64,000 bases of DNA from an uncultured delta proteobacterium (GTDB lineage Bacteria > Myxococcota_A > Polyangia > Fen-1088): NCBI GenBank assembly GCA_963758155.1, contig CAVWUP010000019.1, positions 6,720 to 70,719 on the forward strand, given 5' to 3'. The notes under the pieces were generated by a model. That model was not told where the DNA came from and did no database searches. It saw only the letters and a list, made by a program, of their open reading frames with translations. Both the position numbers and the translations under genes were made by a program. Each line of letters begins with the position of its first letter. Position 1 is the stretch's first letter. Of the stretch, positions 4,377-34,885 are shown in pieces.

Positions 4377-5389
4377 TCCTTCTTGCGCAGAGACTTGCCT
4401 GGAAAGGCCGGCGTGATCGTGCGCAGGTCCACGCCCATGGCTTGCAGGACGGTGGGCGTGATGTCTCGTTGCTCGCCGGCTGAGGTCACCTGCGCATCGT
4501 TGCTGGCCAGGAAGATGTGGGTCGCCTTGCTGTGGTGGGTGGTTCCCACGTCGAAGCCATGGTCAGCGGTGATGTACACGGCGGTGCGGTCGTAGAGTCC
4601 GTCGGTCTTGAGTTGAGCCACGATTCGCCCCAGCCAGGTGTCGAGAGCCACCAGGGCGTCGTTGTATTCCTGCGAACCCTCGCCGTACTTGTGGCCGTTG
4701 ACGTCGGCATCGCCAAAGTGGAGGAACAGGAAGAAACGTCCCTTGGGGCCGAACTTGTCAATCATCGCCAGGGCTTTCTGCCCCACGCCGCGCGCGTCGC
4801 GGGGCATGTCGCCATCCCACGCCGTCAGCGTGCTCTTGGTCAGGTGAAAGGGCTGACCCAGCACGTTCTGTTCGCCAGCCAGACGCATCTTTTCCACCCG
4901 GCGCGTCTGCTTGTCCTCCTCATCGCTCGGCTGGTTCGGGCTGGCCGCCTCTGCCTCGGCGGGAATTTTGGGTCCGCCGGGGCCGAGACCCATGGCCTTG
5001 CCGGTCACCATGATGGTGGCAATGTCTTTCTTGCCGAAGGCTTGCTGTAACCGCTCGAAGATGGAAAGGCCGAGCGGGATGGGACGAAAGATCGCGTTGG
5101 AAACCACCCCCGTGACGCTGGGATCGTAACCGGTCAGCATCTGCGCGTGGCCGGCCCTGGTGTCGGTGACGTGGTCCGACACCTCGATGTCCACCATCCC
5201 GCCTTCCTTGATCAGCTGCGCCAGGTTGGGCATCTGGTTGCGCTTCAGGCAGTCGTTGACGTGCTCGCGCAAGGCCCCATCCCACGAGATGAGAATGGCG
5301 CTGCGCTGCCGCGGCGGCGTCGACGGTTTGAACGCGGCCGCGCTGAAAAGCAGGAGGAGCGCGACCAGGAGACGGGGGCGGGCGAGCAT
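4373..5389 (-). CDS. secreted alkaline-phosphatase-superfamily enzyme (type I phosphodiesterase/nucleotide pyrophosphatase-like)
   Basis: Signal peptide MLARPRLLVALLLLFSAAAF. Motifs ILISWDGALREH (NPP-type metal site), TDTRAGHAQMLTG and ITADHGFD. The stop overlaps the flippase stop region (convergent genes). Confidence 0.7.
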   Translation of the reverse strand: MLARPRLLVALLLLFSAAAFKPSTPPRQRSAILISWDGALREHVNDCLKRNQMPNLAQLIKEGGMVDIEVSDHVTDTRAGHAQMLTGYDPSVTGVVSNAIFRPIPLGLSIFERLQQAFGKKDIATIMVTGKAMGLGPGGPKIPAEAEAASPNQPSDEEDKQTRRVEKMRLAGEQNVLGQPFHLTKSTLTAWDGDMPRDARGVGQKALAMIDKFGPKGRFFLFLHFGDADVNGHKYGEGSQEYNDALVALDTWLGRIVAQLKTDGLYDRTAVYITADHGFDVGTTHHSKATHIFLASNDAQVTSAGEQRDITPTVLQAMGVDLRTITPAFPGKSLRKKD

Positions 5390-5459
5390 CGTAGGGATCT
5401 TTTAGCACCGAAACGCTCATGACTTGCACTCGCACTTTGCCAGGCGCTATCGTTTGTCC

Positions 5460-5990
5460 ATGACAACCACGCGAATGACATGGACCCTGGCCGTTGCAAT
5501 ATTGATGATCGCTCCGTCGGCCCTGGCGCTGGACATGGGCAGCCTGACCAAGAAAGCCGCGGGCGGCGCGGCCACAGCGGCGCGCGACAAAGCCGCCAAG
5601 GAAGTGAATGCCAAGCTCCTGGCCGAGGGGCGCAAGAACCAGTGCAGCTTCAAGACCGACAGCGACGAGCTGGCTGCCGGCTGTGACAAGAAACTCAAGA
5701 AACTGGCCGATGCGCTGGTCGAGGCCAAGAAGCGGCTGAGCGTGGCGGGCGTGACCAGTTTCAAATTCGAGGTTTCCGGACACACCGATTCAAGCGGCAA
5801 GGCCGAGCACAACAAGGAACTGTCGGGCAAGCGCGCCGCCGTGATCGAGCGCGAATTGGTGGCGCGCGGGATCGCCAAGAGCGAGATCGTGGCCATTGGC
5901 ATGGGCTCGGAACGCCCGCTGGTCACGCCCGACAACACGCCAGCCAAGAAGGCGAAGAACCGTCGCTACGAGATCCAGGTGCGTTTCTAG
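5460..5990 (+). CDS. OmpA-family (OmpA/MotB C-terminal domain) peptidoglycan-associated protein
   Basis: N-terminal signal TWTLAVAILMIAPSALA. The C-terminal OmpA-like region is FEVSGHTDSSGKAEHNKELSGKRAAVIERELVARGI...NRRYEIQV. Confidence 0.75.
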   Translation: MTTTRMTWTLAVAILMIAPSALALDMGSLTKKAAGGAATAARDKAAKEVNAKLLAEGRKNQCSFKTDSDELAAGCDKKLKKLADALVEAKKRLSVAGVTSFKFEVSGHTDSSGKAEHNKELSGKRAAVIERELVARGIAKSEIVAIGMGSERPLVTPDNTPAKKAKNRRYEIQVRF

Positions 5991-26446: not shown

Positions 26447-26490
26447 CTTTGTTGCCCTTAGCTCGCGCCGGCGAACTTGTATTCAGTGTG

Positions 26491-26506
26491 CCGAATGACC
26501 ATTCGG
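26491..26506. promoter_or_regulatory. palindrome CCGAATGACCATTCGG upstream of the efflux-operon TetR (candidate autoregulatory operator) in the divergent promoter region with the cytochrome operon
   Basis: 7-bp arms with a 2-nt spacer. A second palindrome CTGAATGTCAGTTCAG lies ~30 bp downstream. Confidence 0.35.
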
Positions 26507-26549
26507 CTGTCAATCTGAATTATTCGGTCTCCTGAATGTCAGTTCAGAC

Positions 26550-27110
26550 GTGCCGGGCCACCCAATCGGCCGCCGACGTTGTAAAGTGCGGACGTCCGCC
26601 GTGTCATGCGCTCGCCGAAGATCCGTCCTGCTCATCGCCGCCGTGGCTTTGTTCTCCGGCGTCGCGGCTGCGCGTCGTGGTCCCGCCGTGGGCACGCGAC
26701 CGCCCCTGCCCATGAGCCACAAGCGCCACATGGAAAAGGATATGAGGTGCCGAGCCTGCCACCAGGGCGTGGAGGGCGAGGCCATGGCGTCGTTTCCGAC
26801 GCTGGCCGATTGCATGGACTGCCACAAGACGCCGCAGGGCCAGGAGCCCGCCGAGCCCGAGGTGCGCGCCCTGGCGGCCCACGGGCAAGAAGTCTTGTGG
26901 GTGCGACGCAACCACTTGGCCGGGCATGTGTACTTTTCGCACGCGGCGCACGTGACCTTGGCTCACATGAAATGCGAGGATTGTCATCGCGACATGCGCA
27001 CGATGGATCGCGCCTTGACCGAGCCCGACGTACACCAGGACATGCGGGCCTGCGTCGCCTGTCATCGCGCCAAACACGCCAGCCTGGACTGCCTGGCCTG
27101 CCACAAGTGA
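26550..27110 (+). CDS. periplasmic pentaheme c-type cytochrome (ActA/NrfB-like size class)
   Basis: Five CxxCH motifs: CRACH, CMDCH, CEDCH, CVACH, CLACH. The signal peptide is RRRSVLLIAAVALFSGVAAA. The start is ATG 26550 or one of two in-frame GTGs. Confidence 0.8.
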   Translation: MPGHPIGRRRCKVRTSAVSCARRRSVLLIAAVALFSGVAAARRGPAVGTRPPLPMSHKRHMEKDMRCRACHQGVEGEAMASFPTLADCMDCHKTPQGQEPAEPEVRALAAHGQEVLWVRRNHLAGHVYFSHAAHVTLAHMKCEDCHRDMRTMDRALTEPDVHQDMRACVACHRAKHASLDCLACHK

Positions 27111-27113
27111 TGC

Positions 27114-29342
27114 ATGAGTCGATTCGGCCGACGTGAACTTCTGGGTGGCGCTGCGCTGGCGGGCGCCGCGGCTTGGGGCTGTCGCCCGGGCAAGGATCGC
27201 TACCGCATCGACAAGCCGCCGCTGCCAGGCAGCCGTCCCGGCGAGGAGCGCTGGGTTCTCTCCACCTGCGCCCTGTGCAACGCGGGTTGCGGGATCAAGG
27301 TGCGCGTGGTGGAGGGCAGGGCGGTCAAGATCGAAGGCAACCCGGATCACCCGGTGAACCGCGGCGGTCTGTGCAGCCGCGGCCAGGCGGCGCTGCAGGC
27401 GCTGTACAACTCGCAGCGCGTGCATGCGCCCCTGCGGCGGCTGGGCGATCGCGGTGACGGTTCGTGGAAGCTGATTTCGTGGGACGAAGCCATCGGTGAA
27501 ATCGTGACCAAGCTGGGCAAGCTGCGCGCCGCTGGCCATCCCGAACGGCTGGTGTTGATCGACGGCGAAGCAGGCACGTTCACCCACGTGCTTTGGACGC
27601 GTTTCCTGTCGGCGTTCGGCAGCCCGAACCACATTGGAATGGGATCGGCTCGCGCCGCGGGCGTCAAGTTGGCCAGCCTCTACACGACGGGCAGTTACGG
27701 TCTGCCCGCGCACGATCTGGCCCGGGCGCGGGTCGTGCTGGCCTTTGGTGCGGAACAGATCGAATCGTCGGGCCAGACCATGCAGTTCATGCGCGCGGCC
27801 AGCGCGTTTGAGCGCCCACGCGTGATCTGCGTGTCGCCGCGCCGGCCGAGCTGCCGTTGCGATGAATGGATCCCGATTGCGCCCGGAACCTACGGCGCGC
27901 TGGCGTTGTCACTGACCCATGTGCTGGTTCGCGATGGCCTCATCGACCGGGACTTCGTCCGCGATTTCGTCTCAGGCTTTTCCACGGGGCGCGACCGAGC
28001 CGGTGTCGAGCAGCCAGGATTCGAGGCGTTGGTTCGCGCGGGGTATGCGCCGGACAGGACACAAGAAGTGACGGGCATTCCGGCAGCCACAGTCGAGCGG
28101 CTGGCGCACGATCTCGCAAAACAGCGCCCCGTGGTAGTTACCGGCGACGGTAGCGCAACGGCGGCGAGCAATGGACTGGCCACGGGTATGTCCATCGCTG
28201 CGCTCAATGTGCTGCTGGGAAACTCGGACCAAGGCGGAGTCGCGGGACCGCGTGAGATCGCTGTTCCGAAATGGGAGGCGCCCATTGTCGATGCGGTCGC
28301 AGCCGCCGGCAGCTCGGCCCCACGCATCGACGGCGCAGGCACGGCGGCTTGCCCGCTGGGGCGCGGTCGCGTGCAAGCCGTTCCCGCGGCCATCACACAG
28401 TCCAGTCCCTATCCCGTCGAGGCGCTGTTTCTGCACGGCACAGATCCGCTGGCCGCGCTGCCAGGACGGAAGGCCTGGCATACGGCGCTCCAGCGAGTGC
28501 CTTTCTTGGTGCGATTCGCCTCGTGGCTCGACGACAGCGCCCGCGGGGCGGACCTGGTGTTGCCCGAGTCTCTGCCTCTCGAGGCATTGGACATAGTCCA
28601 GCTCGCGGCGGATTCGGGCGAGCCCATGCTCAGCTTGCGCCAGCCCGTGGTGGCGCCCTTGTCAGGCACGCGGCAGGCGGGCGACGTCATTGTCGCTCTT
28701 GCTGCTGGACTTGGCGGATCAGTCGGCCGCTCGCTGCCGTGGAAGAGCTACGCAGACGCTGTGGCAAAATCGCTGTCAGCGGAAACCTTGGCTGACATGA
28801 AAGGAAAGGGCGGCCAGTGGAACGAGGCCAAGACCGACCTGCCTCCGCGCAAGTTCGAGATCGGCTCGCAGGCGATCGCGTCGCGCATGGCCGGCTTTCC
28901 CGACGCTGCGATGGCAGCACAGGCCTGGCCGTGCAAGGGATTGCCCCCCTGGGAGCCGCCCCGATTTTCCGGCGACCCGCGAAGGTTCCCCTTGCAACTT
29001 GTCCCTTACCGGCCGGTTCAGTTTGTCGAAGATGGCGGGCCGTTTTTGTCTTGGCTAGGTGAGCTGCCGCTGGTCTCGGGCAATCCATGGCCGCTGCGCG
29101 CGGAGATCAATCCTGCCGATGCTGCGCGCCTCGGTGTGGCCGACGGAGACCAGGTGCTGGTTCAATCTTCGATTGGCACCTGCCCGGCCATCGCGCAGGT
29201 CAGCGACGGTGTCTGCGTGGGCGCGGTGGCCATGGCCTTGGGCCCGGGCGGGGTTGCCGATCTGGTGGTGTCCGACGAAGACCGCTGGTCAGGCGTGCTG
29301 GCCTGGCAAGGCACGCGCGTGCGCGTGAAGAAGATGTCATGA
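27114..29342 (+). CDS. TAT-exported molybdopterin (Mo/W-bisPGD) oxidoreductase-family large subunit (PsrA/QrcB/ActB1-like)
   Basis: Twin-arginine signal MSRFGRRELLGGAALAGAAAWG. N-terminal 4Fe-4S motif CALCNAGC...C. 742 aa. The stop overlaps the next ATG (ATGA). Confidence 0.85.
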   Translation: MSRFGRRELLGGAALAGAAAWGCRPGKDRYRIDKPPLPGSRPGEERWVLSTCALCNAGCGIKVRVVEGRAVKIEGNPDHPVNRGGLCSRGQAALQALYNSQRVHAPLRRLGDRGDGSWKLISWDEAIGEIVTKLGKLRAAGHPERLVLIDGEAGTFTHVLWTRFLSAFGSPNHIGMGSARAAGVKLASLYTTGSYGLPAHDLARARVVLAFGAEQIESSGQTMQFMRAASAFERPRVICVSPRRPSCRCDEWIPIAPGTYGALALSLTHVLVRDGLIDRDFVRDFVSGFSTGRDRAGVEQPGFEALVRAGYAPDRTQEVTGIPAATVERLAHDLAKQRPVVVTGDGSATAASNGLATGMSIAALNVLLGNSDQGGVAGPREIAVPKWEAPIVDAVAAAGSSAPRIDGAGTAACPLGRGRVQAVPAAITQSSPYPVEALFLHGTDPLAALPGRKAWHTALQRVPFLVRFASWLDDSARGADLVLPESLPLEALDIVQLAADSGEPMLSLRQPVVAPLSGTRQAGDVIVALAAGLGGSVGRSLPWKSYADAVAKSLSAETLADMKGKGGQWNEAKTDLPPRKFEIGSQAIASRMAGFPDAAMAAQAWPCKGLPPWEPPRFSGDPRRFPLQLVPYRPVQFVEDGGPFLSWLGELPLVSGNPWPLRAEINPADAARLGVADGDQVLVQSSIGTCPAIAQVSDGVCVGAVAMALGPGGVADLVVSDEDRWSGVLAWQGTRVRVKKMS

Positions 29343-30164
29343 AGCGCGGCCCATCCGACGACGACATGCGCGACTCGCGACGCAAGCTCTTGGCAGGGCT
29401 GGCCGCCTCGGCCGCGGGCGCAATGGTGGGTTGCGCGCGCGCGGTGGCTGCAGCCGAGCGCACTGCCGGTTCACGCGGCCGACGGACATCGCCGCCAGTG
29501 GGGCCTGGTCATCGATCTCGACCGCTGCGCCCGTTGTGCCGGGTGCGTGGTGGCTTGCCAGCAAGAGAACAACGTCGCGCCCGCTGGCCCGCGCGTCGCG
29601 GCCCGCACGCGCCCGATCCACTGGATGGATTTTTTGCCGCCCGCGCCGGGAAGCTGTGCCGCCACTCCCATTCCCTGCATGCACTGCCAGGACCCGCCCT
29701 GCGTGAAGGTTTGCCCGGTGGGCGCGACCTACCAGACCGACGAAGGAATCACAGCGCAGGTCTGGGACCGTTGTATTGGCTGTCGCTATTGCATGGTGGC
29801 CTGTCCCTATGCGCGCCGCTATTTCAATTGGAGCGAGCCCGACTGGCCCGGCCAAGATCTGAGCAGCCTCAATCCCGACGTGGCCCCGCGGCCGCGCGGC
29901 GTGGTGGAAAAGTGCACCTTGTGCCACCACCGCATTCGCGCTGCGCTCGAGCGCGCGCGTCTCGACGAGGAACCGCTCACCGACGAAGCCTTGCACCGGC
30001 TGCCGGCTTGCGCCCAGTCCTGTCCGACCCAGGCCATCACTTTCGGTGACTTGGCTGAGCCCACATCCGAGGTGGCACGCCTGGCCGTGAGTCCGCGCGC
30101 CATGCGACTGCTTCCCGAGGCTGGCACGCGGCCCAAGGTCATCTACTTGCGGGAGAGCACGTGA
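29339..30164 (+). CDS. 4Fe-4S ferredoxin-type electron-transfer subunit (NrfC/PsrB/QrcC/ActB2-like) with an apparent +1 frame discontinuity near 29465-29490
   Basis: Frame 2 from ATG 29339 gives a TAT-type signal MKRGPSDDDMRDSRRKLLAGLAASAAGAMVGCARAVAAAER. Frame 0 from ~29487 gives HRRQWGLVIDLDRCARCAGCVVAC plus three more Cys clusters (CMHCQDPPCVKVCP, CIGCRYCMVACP, CTLCHHRIRA...C). Frame 0 has no start codon before the first ferredoxin motif. Confidence 0.7.
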
Positions 30165-31603
30165 AGGTTCGACAATCCCTTTTGCTTCTCACGGCGCTGT
30201 TCACCGTCGGCGCCTACGCCTGGGTTCAGCAGGTCCTTCAGGGCGGCGATGTGGTCATGGACCTGCACACCATCGGGGCGGGCGGCGTGGCGTGGGGCTT
30301 GTATGTCGTGGGCGATGGCTTCTTCGCCAGCACGGCGCTGGCCATCTTGGCCGTGGCGTGCGTGTTGCGCGTGCTGCGACTGCGGGGCATGGAAAACGTC
30401 TCGCGGATGGCGCTGTCTCTCGGGATCGCGGGCCTCGTGGCCTCGCTCGGCTGCGTGCTGGCTGATCTCGGCCGCCCGGAGGCCGCCATAATGAATCTGC
30501 CGCTGGTGGGGCGCCCACGCTCGCCGTTCTTCGGGACCTTCACCGCGGTGGCAGGCGCGTCGCTCTTCGCGACGGTGGTGCACCTGGCGCTGACCAGCCG
30601 GCCGGCCTGGGCACAGCGGGCACAAAAAGGCGAGCGATGGGCGTGGGTGTGGCGGCTGCTGGCCTGCGGCTGGCACGAGACGGCGTCGGCGAAACAGCGT
30701 CGAGAGAGCGTCGACTTCTGGCTGTCGCTTGTCCTGCTGCCCTTTCTGTTGGCTGGCCTTGTGATTTTGGGGATCGTGTTTGGCGTGAGGGCTGCACGTC
30801 CGACGTGGCAAAGCGTATTCGAAGTTGTCACCTTCGTCGTGTCAGGGGGCGCGGCTGGGTGCAGTCTGTTGTTGCTGGCTGCGCACGGGTCCGGGCGGGC
30901 AAGCGTGTTCACGGCGCGCATGCTGGCGGTGTTCATTGGCGTGAGCGCGCTTCTCGTGGTCACGGGACAGATCCTGGCGCTGCGTACACCATATTTGTCC
31001 GTACATCGCTACGCACGGGCGCTGCTCGACGGGCCGTGGAGCAGGCTGTTCTGGGCGGAGGTGATTCTTCTCTTTTTGGCGGGGATCGTGAGTCTGGCCA
31101 TGGCCTGGCGGAAGAAGGTCCCATTGATTTTGGCGGCAACAACCGCACTGCTGGTGTGCGCGGCCGTGGCGCTTGAACGTTTTCTGGTGTTGGTGGCCTG
31201 GCAGACGCACGGTCTGGGGCTGTCTTGGCCGGCTGGCAAGTACAACCCGACATCGATCGAATGGTCGGTGCTGGTCGGGGTAGCAGCCGGATCTGCGCTC
31301 GTCTTTCTGTTTCTGATCAAGGTTTGTCGCGCCGAAACCGGCGACGCGGCCGAGCCCGCCAGCCCCGAGCCCGCTGGCCGCCGACTTCGCTGGCTCGTCA
31401 CCGTGGCCTGCCTGATTCTGGGCTTCGCCGTCGCCGCTTCGGGTTTGGCATTGTCCGCCGGTTTCGCCAGCGCGCCATTCCTCGATCCGATCTTGCCCGG
31501 CGGCCCGCTGGTTTTCCTCGCCGGTCTGTTCCTGATGGGCCTGGCCGCAGTCGCCTACGAACTGATTCCGGATGGGGAAGTCGCTAGCGGCGCCAAGATC
31601 TGA
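30161..31603 (+). CDS. NrfD/PsrC-family polytopic membrane quinone-interacting subunit (ActC/QrcD-like)
   Basis: GTG 30161 overlaps the FeS gene stop (GTGA). A 480-aa protein with about 10-12 TM segments and the usual position in Mo/FeS/NrfD operons. Confidence 0.8.
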   Translation: MKVRQSLLLLTALFTVGAYAWVQQVLQGGDVVMDLHTIGAGGVAWGLYVVGDGFFASTALAILAVACVLRVLRLRGMENVSRMALSLGIAGLVASLGCVLADLGRPEAAIMNLPLVGRPRSPFFGTFTAVAGASLFATVVHLALTSRPAWAQRAQKGERWAWVWRLLACGWHETASAKQRRESVDFWLSLVLLPFLLAGLVILGIVFGVRAARPTWQSVFEVVTFVVSGGAAGCSLLLLAAHGSGRASVFTARMLAVFIGVSALLVVTGQILALRTPYLSVHRYARALLDGPWSRLFWAEVILLFLAGIVSLAMAWRKKVPLILAATTALLVCAAVALERFLVLVAWQTHGLGLSWPAGKYNPTSIEWSVLVGVAAGSALVFLFLIKVCRAETGDAAEPASPEPAGRRLRWLVTVACLILGFAVAASGLALSAGFASAPFLDPILPGGPLVFLAGLFLMGLAAVAYELIPDGEVASGAKI

Positions 31604-31716: not shown

Positions 31717-32934
31717 TCACCGCGCTCGGATCTCGCCGACCTGCTGCCCTGATTCGTGCGTGATGTACCCGCCCACGGTGTCGAGTTCGCGCCGAAAAGT
31801 TCTGCCGCCCAGCATATCGACCAGGCGCTCGACTCTCGGGTCGGTCGCCAAGGTACGGGGGATCACGAGGTCGAAGCGTTCCACGGCGAGCGGAATGAAT
31901 CCCAGCCCAAAGGCCGCCGCAGCGCTGCGAATGGCGATTCCCGCGTCGGCTGCGCCCATGGCAATCGCTTGTGCGACCTCCATGTGTCCAAGGGCCACGC
32001 CCGCGCTGCCGGGCACGGATGCGGGAGGTACTTTTCTTGATCTCATCGCTTGTTCGAGCAGCTTGTTCGCTCCTGCGCCGGGCTCGCGTTGGATCAGGCG
32101 GATTCTACGATGGATAAGATCTTCCGCGCCTCGGATTCCCAGCGGATTGCCAGGTCGAACGACGATTCCCTGTTCCCAGGATGCGAAGTTGACGAACAGC
32201 ATCGCGCGGCCTGGCAGCGCGCGCCGAACGAACGGGATATTGAATTCCTTCGTCGCCTCGTCGCACAGGTGAAGGCCGGCGACATGGACCTCGCCTCGCG
32301 CGAGGGCCTCGAGCGCGGCCATGCTTGAGCCTTGAACCCAGGAGATGTGAATCCCTGCCGGCTCCTGGCCGAGCCTTGCCGCCAGCATCCCCAGCGCCGG
32401 CGCGCATCCCATGACGACCAGTCGCCGGCGGACAGTCTCGATGTCACCCAGGGGCTCGACTCGCACCGTTCGCGGGCTGGCACGGCGCCGTGGCCAAGGA
32501 ACCACCAGGCCATCGGCGGCGCGGGAAGATGACTCGCTGCGCCGCGGGTCGATGGGATGCGCGATCAAGCGCCCGTCTATCTCGGCCAGGGAAACCCGGG
32601 GGCTGTTCGACTCAAACGCCCAGAGGCTTTCAGCCAAAGTTGCATCGAGCGGCTCCGGCGGAACGTTGAGACAAAAGAGAGACTCGATCCGACAGCCGAG
32701 AACATGGGCGAGGCGGAGTGCAACGTCGGTGCCAGGGACCACGCGGCCACTCTCCAAGCCGCACAGACTTTGTCGTGACAGGCCGACCTTCTTCGCGAGC
32801 TGAAGCTGGCTCAGCCCGCGGGCCAGCCGGAACTCCTTCAGCGAGGAGCGAAGCGCGGGAGGCCTGACCGCGGGGCATGTGTCGCGCCGACCTGACACCA
32901 AGTCAAAGATGCTTGCGCCGTGGCGAAACGTCAA
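31717..32934 (-). CDS. transcriptional regulator with N-terminal XRE-type HTH and C-terminal periplasmic-binding-protein-like (PBP-like, TunR/ModE-like oxyanion-sensing) domain
   Basis: HTH LKEFRLARGLSQLQLAKKVGLSRQSLCGLESGRVVPGTDVALRLAHVLGCRIESLF. The C-terminal domain resembles ModA-like binding folds. It is convergent with the Mo-enzyme operon. Confidence 0.7.
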   Translation of the reverse strand: MTFRHGASIFDLVSGRRDTCPAVRPPALRSSLKEFRLARGLSQLQLAKKVGLSRQSLCGLESGRVVPGTDVALRLAHVLGCRIESLFCLNVPPEPLDATLAESLWAFESNSPRVSLAEIDGRLIAHPIDPRRSESSSRAADGLVVPWPRRRASPRTVRVEPLGDIETVRRRLVVMGCAPALGMLAARLGQEPAGIHISWVQGSSMAALEALARGEVHVAGLHLCDEATKEFNIPFVRRALPGRAMLFVNFASWEQGIVVRPGNPLGIRGAEDLIHRRIRLIQREPGAGANKLLEQAMRSRKVPPASVPGSAGVALGHMEVAQAIAMGAADAGIAIRSAAAAFGLGFIPLAVERFDLVIPRTLATDPRVERLVDMLGGRTFRRELDTVGGYITHESGQQVGEIRAR

Positions 32935-33115: not shown

Positions 33116-34885
33116 ATGAAGAACCAACGACGGGATTTCCTCAAGATCACGGCCGCGGGGGCGGCGGGATTGGCGCTGGCACGAGCGGACAAAGTATTCG
33201 CGGCATGGCCGACCACCGGCACCTTGGCGGTGAATCCCACCATCGACAACATGCGCGTCGTGGCCTGCGTCGACACGAAGATGCTGAAGACCGCCCTGAC
33301 CTCGATGACCTTCGCCGCGGAAAACGCGGCTGTTGACACGGCCCGCGTGCAGGCGAACATGGACGCCATGGCCATGCAACTGGCCAACCAGACCACCGCC
33401 GATGCGGCGTGGAAAGCCATTTTCAGGTCAAGCAAGGCGTGGAATGCCACGAAGGTCGCCATCAAGATAAATACAATTGAGCCCAAGAACCAGGCACGCA
33501 TAGCGGTCGTTCAGAAATTCTGTGAGCTCTTCTTGGGCTTTGGCGTGCTGCCGGCAAACATCATCGTCTATGACGGAAATACGACCTATGCCAAGCAGAT
33601 GGTCACTGATTACTCTCCGTATTTCAGCCTGACCGACACCACCAAGATCCAGGCCGTGGTCAGCAGTTTCAATGATTCACTGGGGGGCACGATAAACGCT
33701 GCCATTCCGGGCGGGAATCCCGCAACCGCGGCCTGCACTGCGGACATCGCCAATGGCACGATCGACATTCTGGTCAACATCGCAAACAACAAGGGCCACA
33801 CTGAAATGGGTGGGGCCACGCTGAGCATGAAGAACCACTTTGGCACTTTTGCTCCCAATCACGGTGCCAGCCCGGCCTATATCTTCAACATCAACAAGAG
33901 CGACGCCATTCTCGGGGGAACCCCCGTGCGGCAGCAATTGTGCTTTATCGATTCGATCGTCGCCAACAAGGCCTCGAATACGGGAACTCCAGAAGTGGCG
34001 CCCTGCTATCTCATCATGGGCGTGTTCGGTCCCGCGGTGGACTATCTGACCGTCAAGAAGGTCCGCGAGGCGGTCATGAATTGCACCCATGATGAGACGA
34101 TCATCAGCTCGTACATGACGACCTTCGGGTACGCGACAACCGACCCGGTGTGGGTTGTGGCGCCGCCCGCTGATGGCACAACCAGCGCCGATGCAGGCGC
34201 AGGCGGGGCAGGAGGCTCGGGCGGCGCGGGCGGCAGTGGCGGGACCAGCGGATCCGGCGGAGCGAGCGGTGGCGGGAGCAGCGGGGCCGGAGGAACGCGC
34301 ACCGGCGGGACCAGTGGGTCTGCCGGCGCCAGTGGCGGCGGGACCAGCGGGAGCGGGGGAGCACGCCCTGGCGGATCCAGCGGGTCGGGCGGCGCAGGCA
34401 ATGGCGGCAACAGCGCGACCGGTGGTGCGAGCGCAGGCGGCGGCAGCAGCGCGACCGGCGGTGCGACCGCAGGCGGCGGCGGCAGTGGGGCTGGAGGCGT
34501 GGCCAGCGGCGGGACGAGCGCGCCGGGGAGCACAGGCAGCGGAGGTGCCATTGCCACCGGCGGCGCGAACGCCAGCTCTGGCGCGTCGGGCGGCGGTGCC
34601 GGCGGCGGCGCCACCAGCGCTCCGCTGGCGTCCGGGGGCTCGACCGCGACAGGCGGGACGAAGGCCGCGGGCGGGACGACGGTGAGCGCGCTGGGCGGCA
34701 GTGGCGGCAGCCGCGAAACTGCCGGGGCGGGCACGACCAATGTCACCGGCGGCAACTCGTCAGGCGGCTGCAGTGTGGCCGGCGCCGAGAGCAGGACCAC
34801 CCGCTGGGGGGCGATGCTGGCGCTCGGCACAGTGGTGGCGGCCAAACTTCGGCGTCTGGTGGGCGGCGACGATCAGTCGTCGTGA
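33116..34885 (+). CDS. TAT-signal secreted protein of unknown function (possibly DUF362-like) with a long Gly/Ser/Ala linker and a MYXO-CTERM-type C-terminal anchor
   Basis: MKNQRRDFLKITAAGAAGLALARA twin-arginine signal. A ~330-aa globular domain is followed by a ~190-aa (S/T)GG(A/S)G repeat region. The C-terminus is GGCSVAGAE...AMLALGTVVAAKLRRLVGG. Confidence 0.65.
   Translation: MKNQRRDFLKITAAGAAGLALARADKVFAAWPTTGTLAVNPTIDNMRVVACVDTKMLKTALTSMTFAAENAAVDTARVQANMDAMAMQLANQTTADAAWKAIFRSSKAWNATKVAIKINTIEPKNQARIAVVQKFCELFLGFGVLPANIIVYDGNTTYAKQMVTDYSPYFSLTDTTKIQAVVSSFNDSLGGTINAAIPGGNPATAACTADIANGTIDILVNIANNKGHTEMGGATLSMKNHFGTFAPNHGASPAYIFNINKSDAILGGTPVRQQLCFIDSIVANKASNTGTPEVAPCYLIMGVFGPAVDYLTVKKVREAVMNCTHDETIISSYMTTFGYATTDPVWVVAPPADGTTSADAGAGGAGGSGGAGGSGGTSGSGGASGGGSSGAGGTRTGGTSGSAGASGGGTSGSGGARPGGSSGSGGAGNGGNSATGGASAGGGSSATGGATAGGGGSGAGGVASGGTSAPGSTGSGGAIATGGANASSGASGGGAGGGATSAPLASGGSTATGGTKAAGGTTVSALGGSGGSRETAGAGTTNVTGGNSSGGCSVAGAESRTTRWGAMLALGTVVAAKLRRLVGGDDQSS

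Follow-up and report, generated by a model that had tools for sequence, protein, structure and literature searches.

Four genes on the forward strand, between positions 26550 and 31603 of a 64-kb window (64,000 nucleotides of contig CAVWUP010000019.1, from an uncultured Polyangia bacterium; 'the window' always means this whole stretch), encode a pentahaem cytochrome c, a 742-residue protein related to the molybdenum-bis(pyranopterin guanine dinucleotide) (Mo-bisPGD) enzymes, an iron-sulphur (FeS) protein and an NrfD-like membrane protein. All four were found where the original prediction had placed them. We consider it likely that the operon specifies a periplasm-facing, membrane-anchored electron-transfer complex of the type represented by Alternative Complex III (ACIII) and Qrc, and not a substrate-reducing molybdoenzyme. 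This reading is built on gene content, cofactor-binding motifs, fold relationships and distribution among genomes, all of which were observed; for the assembly of the subunits, the quinone site and the electron path we relied on homology to the ACIII structures (PMC5928083) and on Qrc biochemistry (PMC6303296, PMC13059093).

The cytochrome gene lies at 26601..27110, the longest open reading frame (ORF) starting at GTG 26550; in the near-identical locus L001, gene callers chose the start equivalent to GTG 26601, giving a product of 169 residues. The five CxxCH motifs that had been predicted are present in the ORF with either start (26550/26601-27110). The gene for the large, MopB-like subunit (27114..29342) follows after a gap of 3 nt, and overlaps the FeS gene (29339..30164; 274 residues if intact) at an ATGA (29339), which in turn overlaps the gene for the 480-residue membrane subunit (30161..31603) at a GTGA (30161). 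The overlaps taken as translational coupling of all of the genes are thus real at the last two junctions, and absent between the cytochrome and large subunit genes. The FeS gene had been taken for a plain intact gene, but has no intact ORF in the window because of a frameshift, discussed below. Four further features had been overlooked, namely the FS0 cluster motif and the lipobox of the large subunit, the 16 cysteines of the FeS subunit and the 12 helices of the membrane subunit.

A scan of one genome per GTDB species gave at least 298 relatives, and the comparisons made here use the best 80 loci, all of which are in metagenome-assembled genomes (MAGs). These MAGs include Myxococcales fen MAGs, Kofleriaceae, Anaeromyxobacteraceae, Planctomycetota, Fibrobacterota, Vicinamibacterales and further Acidobacteriota, as well as Chloroflexota, Methylomirabilota, Binatia, Bacteroidota/Ignavibacteriales, Gemmatimonadota, Nitrospinota, Gammaproteobacteria and two archaea. 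In about 55 of the 80 loci the genes again run in the order pentahaem cytochrome, MopB-like, FeS and NrfD-like subunit; this arrangement recurs in many phyla, and so is far beyond what chance would produce. Throughout these cassettes the cytochrome almost always has exactly five CxxCH motifs in 160-190 residues. The module was thought to be atypical for a myxobacterium; in fact many Polyangia, Kofleriaceae and Anaeromyxobacteraceae MAGs carry the cassette.

Three kinds of locus were separated among the 80 by a neighbour-joining tree, which has no support values and includes no bona fide QrcB. The first kind lacks the cytochrome and occurs mainly in Chloroflexota, Methylomirabilota and archaea, with one Firmicute. 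These loci carry a TorD/NarJ-like chaperone gene, and many keep the Cys that is the protein ligand to Mo, together with the DPR/DTR and PGTD motifs; they encode ordinary catalytic Psr/Arr-like enzymes. The second kind comprises six loci with contiguous actA-B1-B2-C-D-E-F, including L078, L079, L084 and L085, whose hosts are Gammaproteobacteria and Desulfobacterota-like MAGs. They represent the split-ActB ACIII, FS0 motif included, that is known from Fe-oxidisers (PMC4643136). In ActB2 the Cys that is also lost from ActB of 6F0K is replaced by Thr, which is the signature of a [3Fe-4S] cluster; FS0 is found in ActB1, and there is neither a lipobox nor a twin-arginine translocation (TAT) signal on B2. 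The third kind is the clade of the window. Its large subunit has an invariant Cys after the hydrophobic region of the TAT signal, forming a lipobox that in many members is the canonical L-A-G-C; a conserved DPYxxxKPxVPG linker comes next. The ligand Cys is missing from this subunit. The FeS subunit of the clade has 16 Cys and a TAT signal of its own, and ActD, ActE and ActF are absent. Across the related loci, an upstream pentahaem gene and loss of the ligand Cys go hand in hand. Two loci, from Anaeromyxobacteraceae and Acidobacteria, combine a ligand Cys with an upstream pentahaem cytochrome (MopB-like genes at 1147-3576 in L031 and 6617-9430 in L032), so a catalytic enzyme with a pentahaem wire does exist in nature.

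The large subunit contains three Pfam domains of Mo-bisPGD enzymes. Its TAT signal, with the twin-arginine motif RRELL, leads to a lipobox whose Cys23 is invariant (27129-27182). All four Cys of the FS0 motif (C52-x2-C55-x3-C59-x27-C87; 27267-27374) are present, and the motif is invariant in the close clade; an FeS cluster is therefore probably still bound by the subunit, even in the absence of Mo. Over the whole window clade the motif reads CCCC or, in the Planctomycetota, Acidobacteriota and Kofleriaceae subclades, CCCG. The fourth Cys is Gly in L006, L015-L024, L028, L043-L048, L052, L062, L067, L070-L073 and L080, which suggests a three-Cys cluster site or some other ligand.

The Mo ligand could be sought by alignment with ArrA and PsrA, as had been proposed. 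In two phmmer alignments Arg180 (27651-27653) occupies the position of the Cys ligand in ArrA (SSVCAEA) and in PsrA (SLCTA). Among 20 diverse homologues and the 80 loci the residue in this column is R, G, T, S, D, N, A, H, Q, E or Y; it varies freely and is thus not constrained. Two pterin-site motifs are also altered, DPR to SPR and PGTD to PGTY. There are 168 columns that are invariant in eight relatives with the ligand Cys; the window clade keeps 80 of them and loses 88, and the split ActB1 of true ACIII keeps 96. C180, D260, R346 and P221 are lost in both, whereas D495, W559 and R641 are lost in the window clade alone. A deletion of about 17 residues in domain IV, found in the Polyangia subclade to which the window belongs, takes out further columns that are invariant in catalytic enzymes. 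No homologue of a TorD/NarJ-type chaperone was found in the window by tblastn. These features make it probable that the large subunit binds no Mo- or W-pterin, and the catalytic Psr/Ttr/Srr-type function that the original prediction thought equally likely is disfavoured.

The cytochrome, a member of the Cytochrome_C7 family, carries a hydrophobic anchor or signal at its N-terminus. In addition to the five CxxCH motifs, five other His and a single Met are invariant. Among solved structures the closest is ActA (6f0k_A, 1.5e-16); the five haem motifs align, and ActA has the Met and four of the five additional His. Among NCBIfam models QrcA ranks first, with 69 bits (cut-off 180; the model has 174 positions). 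The statement that the cytochrome is not QrcA-like is thus at odds with its best family match, while its five haems and their axial ligands fit ActA.

The FeS subunit, read as the intact protein, carries a TAT signal separate from that of the large subunit, and its 16 cluster Cys would suffice for four [4Fe-4S] clusters. Its best solved relative is the C-terminal domain of ActB (6f0k_B, 189 bits, 7e-55), ahead of ArrB (126 bits) and PsrB (114 bits), and QrcC is its first NCBIfam match (245 bits, cut-off 400). The Cys-to-Thr change of ActB2, seen also in loci L078-L088, is missing, as the fourth Cys of group III is kept. With all 16 Cys in place, four [4Fe-4S] clusters and no [3Fe-4S] cluster are expected. 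A Tyr lies between two of the Cys of the proximal cluster (CRYC); the equivalent Tyr is essential in QrcC (PMC13059093).

The membrane subunit scores 53 bits with Pfam NrfD, and by itself gave no match in a phmmer search of the PDB. Its relationship to ActC of ACIII becomes visible only with a family profile and an AlphaFold2 (AF2) model. A profile of 20 family members matched ActC of all four ACIII structures with E-values between 5e-82 (6f0k_C) and 2e-73, ActF weakly and PsrC not at all. The AF2 model (pLDDT 82.5, pTM 0.85) has 12 transmembrane helices (TMH), and its best folds are ActC of the same four structures (template modelling (TM) score 0.67-0.72 over about 408 columns), with ActF and then PsrC behind. 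The QrcD model does not match the subunit at E<0.01. The protein consists of an ActC-like core of 10 helices and a conserved C-terminal extension of two (31343..31603; motifs DP..P..P..F..G and YE..P). Two forms exist in the window clade, one of about 440 residues with 10 helices and the SPLLWD motif of ActC, and the long form of the window. The extension occurs solely fused to the long form and never as a separate ORF, and its profile has no match in the PDB. The idea that it might be a fused ActD was unsupported by sequence, as hhalign against ActD of four split-ACIII loci gave a probability of 1.7%. An SP motif, the Asp of LADLGRP and the Arg of ERF (Arg395 of ActC) are conserved; the LADLGRP Asp sits at the position of ActC His139 and probably at that of QrcD Asp120.

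By analogy with ACIII and Qrc, the ActC-like subunit would take up menaquinone or menaquinol on its periplasmic side. Electrons would pass between this site and the proximal cluster in the FeS subunit, and the five-haem, ActA-like wire would lead from there to redox partners in the periplasm. The CRYC Tyr, the SP motif, the LADLGRP Asp and the ERF Arg all favour a quinone path of this kind. The other three [4Fe-4S] clusters, continued by FS0 as a fifth cluster in the large lipoprotein subunit, would form a side branch, and the large subunit, most likely devoid of Mo- or W-pterin, would act as a scaffold for FS0. The equivalent four-cluster branch of ACIII has no known role (PMC5928083).

Electrons could run from quinol to periplasmic or extracellular cytochromes, as in ACIII, or from cytochromes to quinone, as in Qrc. 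A cluster wire composed of [4Fe-4S] centres only, together with bis-His haems, would suit low-potential menaquinone chemistry in either direction. Elsewhere in the window clade the cassette is adjoined by large MtrC/c554-like multihaem cytochromes and ResB/CcsA maturation genes, and by pairs of a histidine kinase and a sigma-54 regulator; in Bacteroidota-type relatives Rieske and cytochrome b genes stand beside it. These are respiratory electron-transfer contexts, not those of oxyanion reductases. The multihaem neighbours hint at quinol oxidation towards periplasmic or extracellular acceptors, and the Qrc-like architecture would allow the reverse, quinone reduction. We lean slightly towards a reversible or quinol-oxidising role.

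Several observations weigh against an electron-transfer complex of this type. The large subunit retains the full four-domain fold, and the closest folds to it are ArrA and PsrA, with ActB outside the top 50. Pfam domain scores do not separate the window type, split ActB1 and the Cys-ligand relatives, and were dropped as a gauge of decay of the cofactor site for that reason. Loss of the Cys is no proof by itself, because arsenite oxidase, a Mo-bisPGD enzyme, also has no protein ligand to Mo. ActC His139, Asp169 and Asp253, whose roles in the quinone site have been described (PMC5928083), align with Asp102, Thr126 and Val206, and with Asp169 and Asp253 unconserved the details of the quinone site are uncertain. 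No gene for a hydrogenase, formate dehydrogenase, oxidase, cytochrome c3 or any further cytochrome was found in the 64-kb window, in which the pentahaem gene is the sole one for a c-type cytochrome. Finally, a genuine frameshift in the FeS gene would leave the source strain without an active complex.

That frameshift is due to an extra A at 29452, after codon 38, which shifts the frame by +1 and leaves the TAT-signal N-terminus (from 29339) and the ferredoxin domain (to 30164) in different frames. In the ferredoxin frame the first canonical start is GTG 29547, already within the first CxxCxxCxxxC motif. An intact ORF of 274 residues is found in L003, which is 84% identical, and in two independent assemblies that are 99.9% identical to the window over 13.25 kb: L001 (NCBI GCA_049690695.1, 'MAG: Polyangia bacterium') and L002 (Logan assembly of ERR11571142). 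Compared with these two, the window differs by ten substitutions and a single indel, the A at 29452. A programmed frameshift was ruled out because the site is not slippery and the extra A is shared with no relative. MopB-like genes split into two ORFs were seen in three MAG loci (L013 5299-7307, L054 7001-9234 and L086 6896-9323), and frameshifts, real or artefactual, are common in data of this kind.

The frameshift may nevertheless be biological, and the operon a recently inactivated cluster of pseudogenes in the source strain. The insertion is, after all, present in the window sequence itself, and its context, GCTGC[A]GCCG, is not a homopolymer. Set against this, the A is missing from both of the 99.9%-identical assemblies, no other indel occurs in 13 kb, the rest of the operon is intact, and the split MopB genes of other MAGs point to frequent assembly errors. 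We regard an assembly error as more likely than true inactivation, and a pseudogene cluster as possible but rather unlikely.

The complex could also be a true QrcABCD orthologue, in which electrons from cytochrome c3, supplied by a soluble hydrogenase or formate dehydrogenase, reduce menaquinone electrogenically. The gene order is that of qrcABCD, models of QrcA, QrcB and QrcC are the top NCBIfam matches of their respective subunits (262 bits for QrcB, cut-off 440), the JGI label on several homologues is 'menaquinone reductase, molybdopterin-binding-like subunit', and the CRYC Tyr essential in QrcC is present. However, all three matches fall well short of the equivalog cut-offs (69/180, 262/440 and 245/400), and the membrane subunit does not match QrcD. 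QrcA has six haems and not five, and QrcC has one [3Fe-4S] and three [4Fe-4S] clusters (PMC8076601), compared to the 16 Cys found here; QrcB has no redox cofactor (PMC13059093), compared to the FS0 motif of the window protein. Nor does the window contain a gene for the hydrogenase, formate dehydrogenase or c3 on which Qrc would draw. Orthology to Qrc is therefore considered unlikely.

A further rival reading is a catalytic Mo/W-bisPGD oxidoreductase, ie a Psr/Arr/Phs/Ttr-like enzyme with an absent or unconventional protein ligand and the pentahaem cytochrome as an extra wire. The nearest solved structures to the large subunit are ArrA (8e-65) and PsrA (3e-43), with ActB of ACIII giving weak N-terminal matches only, and its AF2 model (pLDDT 82.4) keeps the whole MopB fold, with TM scores of 0.82 to ArrA and 0.76 to PsrA. 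The NCBIfam scores for PhsA (256 bits) and ArrA (236 bits) come close to that for QrcB. FS0, which normally feeds the Mo site, is retained; L031 and L032 demonstrate the pairing of a ligand Cys with a pentahaem cytochrome; and a regulator with a domain of molybdate/tungstate type adjoins the cassette. These points are outweighed by the Arg in an unconstrained ligand column, by the loss of DPR, PGTD and many other residues invariant in catalytic enzymes, including those in the domain IV deletion, and by the lack of the TorD/NarJ-type chaperone gene that the Cys-ligand relatives carry. The regulator, moreover, is not conserved with the cassette, its place in L003 and L008 being taken by a toxin-antitoxin pair. 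A catalytic enzyme thus seems improbable.

An ordinary ACIII with actDEF elsewhere in the genome is highly improbable: ActA, ActB2 and ActC are indeed the nearest solved relatives and Fe-oxidiser ACIII can have a split ActB with FS0 (PMC4643136), but the true split ACIII loci (L078, L079, L084 and L085) form a separate clade with contiguous actAB1B2CDEF, the Cys-to-Thr signature, no lipobox and no B2 TAT signal, tblastn of the window yielded no ActD/E/F, and the annotated recurrent neighbour families of its clade are not ActD/E/F-like, ActDEF orders being confined to the split-ACIII loci.

The convergent regulator expected downstream of the operon is present at 31717-32934 on the reverse strand. 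It combines an XRE helix-turn-helix with a domain that shows a 184-bit match to the last 290 residues of PRK14498 ('molybdopterin biosynthesis protein'), and which we read as a binding domain of molybdate/tungstate type. Its divergent partner is a gene for a 589-residue DUF362 protein with a TAT signal (33116-34885, forward strand). Both genes were found only in the same strain, and L003 and L008 have an MNT/HepT toxin-antitoxin pair instead. The regulator was rejected as a sign of a Mo enzyme because it is absent from the neighbourhood of the cassette in relatives, and it faces another gene.

Within the Polyangia subclade of the window, conservation of the neighbourhood is limited to a TetR-RND efflux operon that runs divergently. 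Between it and the cytochrome gene is a perfect 8+8 palindrome, GCCGAATG-AC-CATTCGGC (26490-26507), set within a larger, imperfect inverted repeat (26473-26545). The palindrome is kept in L003, L008, L010 and L011 and may be an operator bound by TetR. Identity across related Polyangia loci is higher for the TetR protein (79-96%) than for the cytochrome (73-78%). In L003 the palindrome and the cytochrome start are separated by a GC-rich insertion of about 300 bp (approximately 5200-5480) that contains internal repeats and is missing from the window and other relatives. In a sister Myxococcota clade (L007, L025, L029, L039, L054 and L072) a tetratricopeptide repeat protein with a CcmH/CycH-like domain (PF23914, 50 bits) is encoded directly upstream of the cassette. 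The remaining genes of the window are ordinary myxobacterial ones.

A split ActB with FS0 (PMC4643136) and 'Qrc' annotations in MAGs outside the Desulfobacterota (PMC10564751) have been reported; no description of the window-type clade as such was found in the literature. The clade would appear to belong to a widespread, unstudied sister group of ACIII and Qrc. More tentatively, it may be a functionally distinct third family beside these two, in which the MopB-like lipoprotein would be more than an inert scaffold, its FS0 offering electrons a second way in or out or hosting a reaction of unknown kind, although we hold this stronger proposal to be unlikely. Such a family would span Myxococcota, Planctomycetota, Acidobacteriota, Fibrobacterota and others, represented by MAGs only in the present search. 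Were it real, the five-cluster FeS wire would end in FS0, and the complex would link the quinone pool with periplasmic redox partners as a hub with two ports; it would also be a living intermediate on the evolutionary path from catalytic enzymes of the Psr/Arr type to cofactor-less ACIII and Qrc. To our knowledge, no characterised complexes other than ACIII and Qrc have turned the scaffold of a molybdoenzyme solely to moving electrons between quinones and cytochromes.

The cassette is of interest for bioenergetics and for the metabolic annotation of MAGs. It was common in uncultured bacteria of soil, peat and groundwater in the present search, under a KEGG-style label of 'Qrc' or the NCBI label 'molybdopterin-dependent oxidoreductase'. 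Both labels can mislead metabolic reconstruction, the former towards the hydrogen and formate metabolism of sulfate reducers and the latter towards oxyanion reduction.

The comparison with ACIII was made with the structures from Rhodothermus marinus (6F0K), Flavobacterium johnsoniae (6BTM), Roseiflexus (6LOD) and Chloroflexus (8K9E). The original prediction of a quinone-interacting core of the ACIII/Qrc type agrees with ActA, the ActB C-terminal domain and ActC being the best solved relatives, and separate genes for the ActB1-like and ActB2-like parts were found as described there. Likeness to ACIII extends to the pentahaem cytochrome with its matching haem ligands, the FeS module, the 10-helix core of the membrane subunit, and a MopB-derived large subunit that is exported by the TAT pathway and has no Mo ligand; the split of ActB with FS0 also has its counterpart in the Fe-oxidiser clusters (PMC4643136). 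The differences begin with ActD, the monohaem ActE and ActF. Their absence had been predicted, and tblastn with the sequences from L078 and L084 found nothing in the 64-kb window. In the FeS subunit, which bears a separate TAT signal, the Cys that ActB has exchanged for Thr is retained; ActB has one [3Fe-4S] and three [4Fe-4S] clusters. The B1 domain of ACIII is without cofactor, whereas the large subunit of the window, a lipoprotein in which the ArrA/PsrA-like fold is nearly complete, keeps FS0. Two helices are added at the C-terminus of the membrane subunit, which does not conserve His139, Asp169 and Asp253 of ActC.

For Qrc the comparison rests on the NCBIfam models and on statements in later papers. 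Gene order is the same (cytochrome c, MopB-like, FeS, NrfD-like, and nothing else), the best NCBIfam matches of three subunits are to Qrc, the Mo ligand is lacking in both, and a periplasmic head sits on a membrane subunit of the 10-TMH NrfD group (ActC, QrcD, DsrP and HybB). However, every score lies under its equivalog cut-off and QrcD gives no match; the cytochrome has five haems compared to six, the large subunit has FS0 compared to a cofactor-less QrcB, the FeS subunit is without the [3Fe-4S] signature and the membrane subunit has 12 helices compared to 10. Qrc belongs to sulfate reducers of the Desulfobacterota, while the hosts here are Polyangia and other lineages that do not reduce sulfate, and no c3, hydrogenase or formate dehydrogenase partner is adjacent in the window.

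The enzymes of the Psr/Arr/Phs type provide the nearest sequences and folds for the large subunit, and share with the window system the FS0 motif, a 16-Cys, four-cluster FeS subunit and export by the TAT pathway. They differ in having Cys where the window has Arg180, in their intact pterin-site motifs, in the maturation chaperone gene and in the lack of a pentahaem cytochrome, and their membrane anchor is of the 8-helix PsrC type (8 or 9 helices in PsrC/TtrC), compared to the 10-helix ActC type with two helices added. The system has the gene set of Qrc and sequences like those of ACIII, yet fails on defining features of both. Its predicted cofactor signature, five haems and five [4Fe-4S] clusters with no [3Fe-4S] cluster and no Mo ligand, sits between Psr/Arr on the one side and ACIII/Qrc on the other, which makes it a useful test case for how catalysis is lost and for the purpose of the apparently 'useless' FeS side branch of ACIII.

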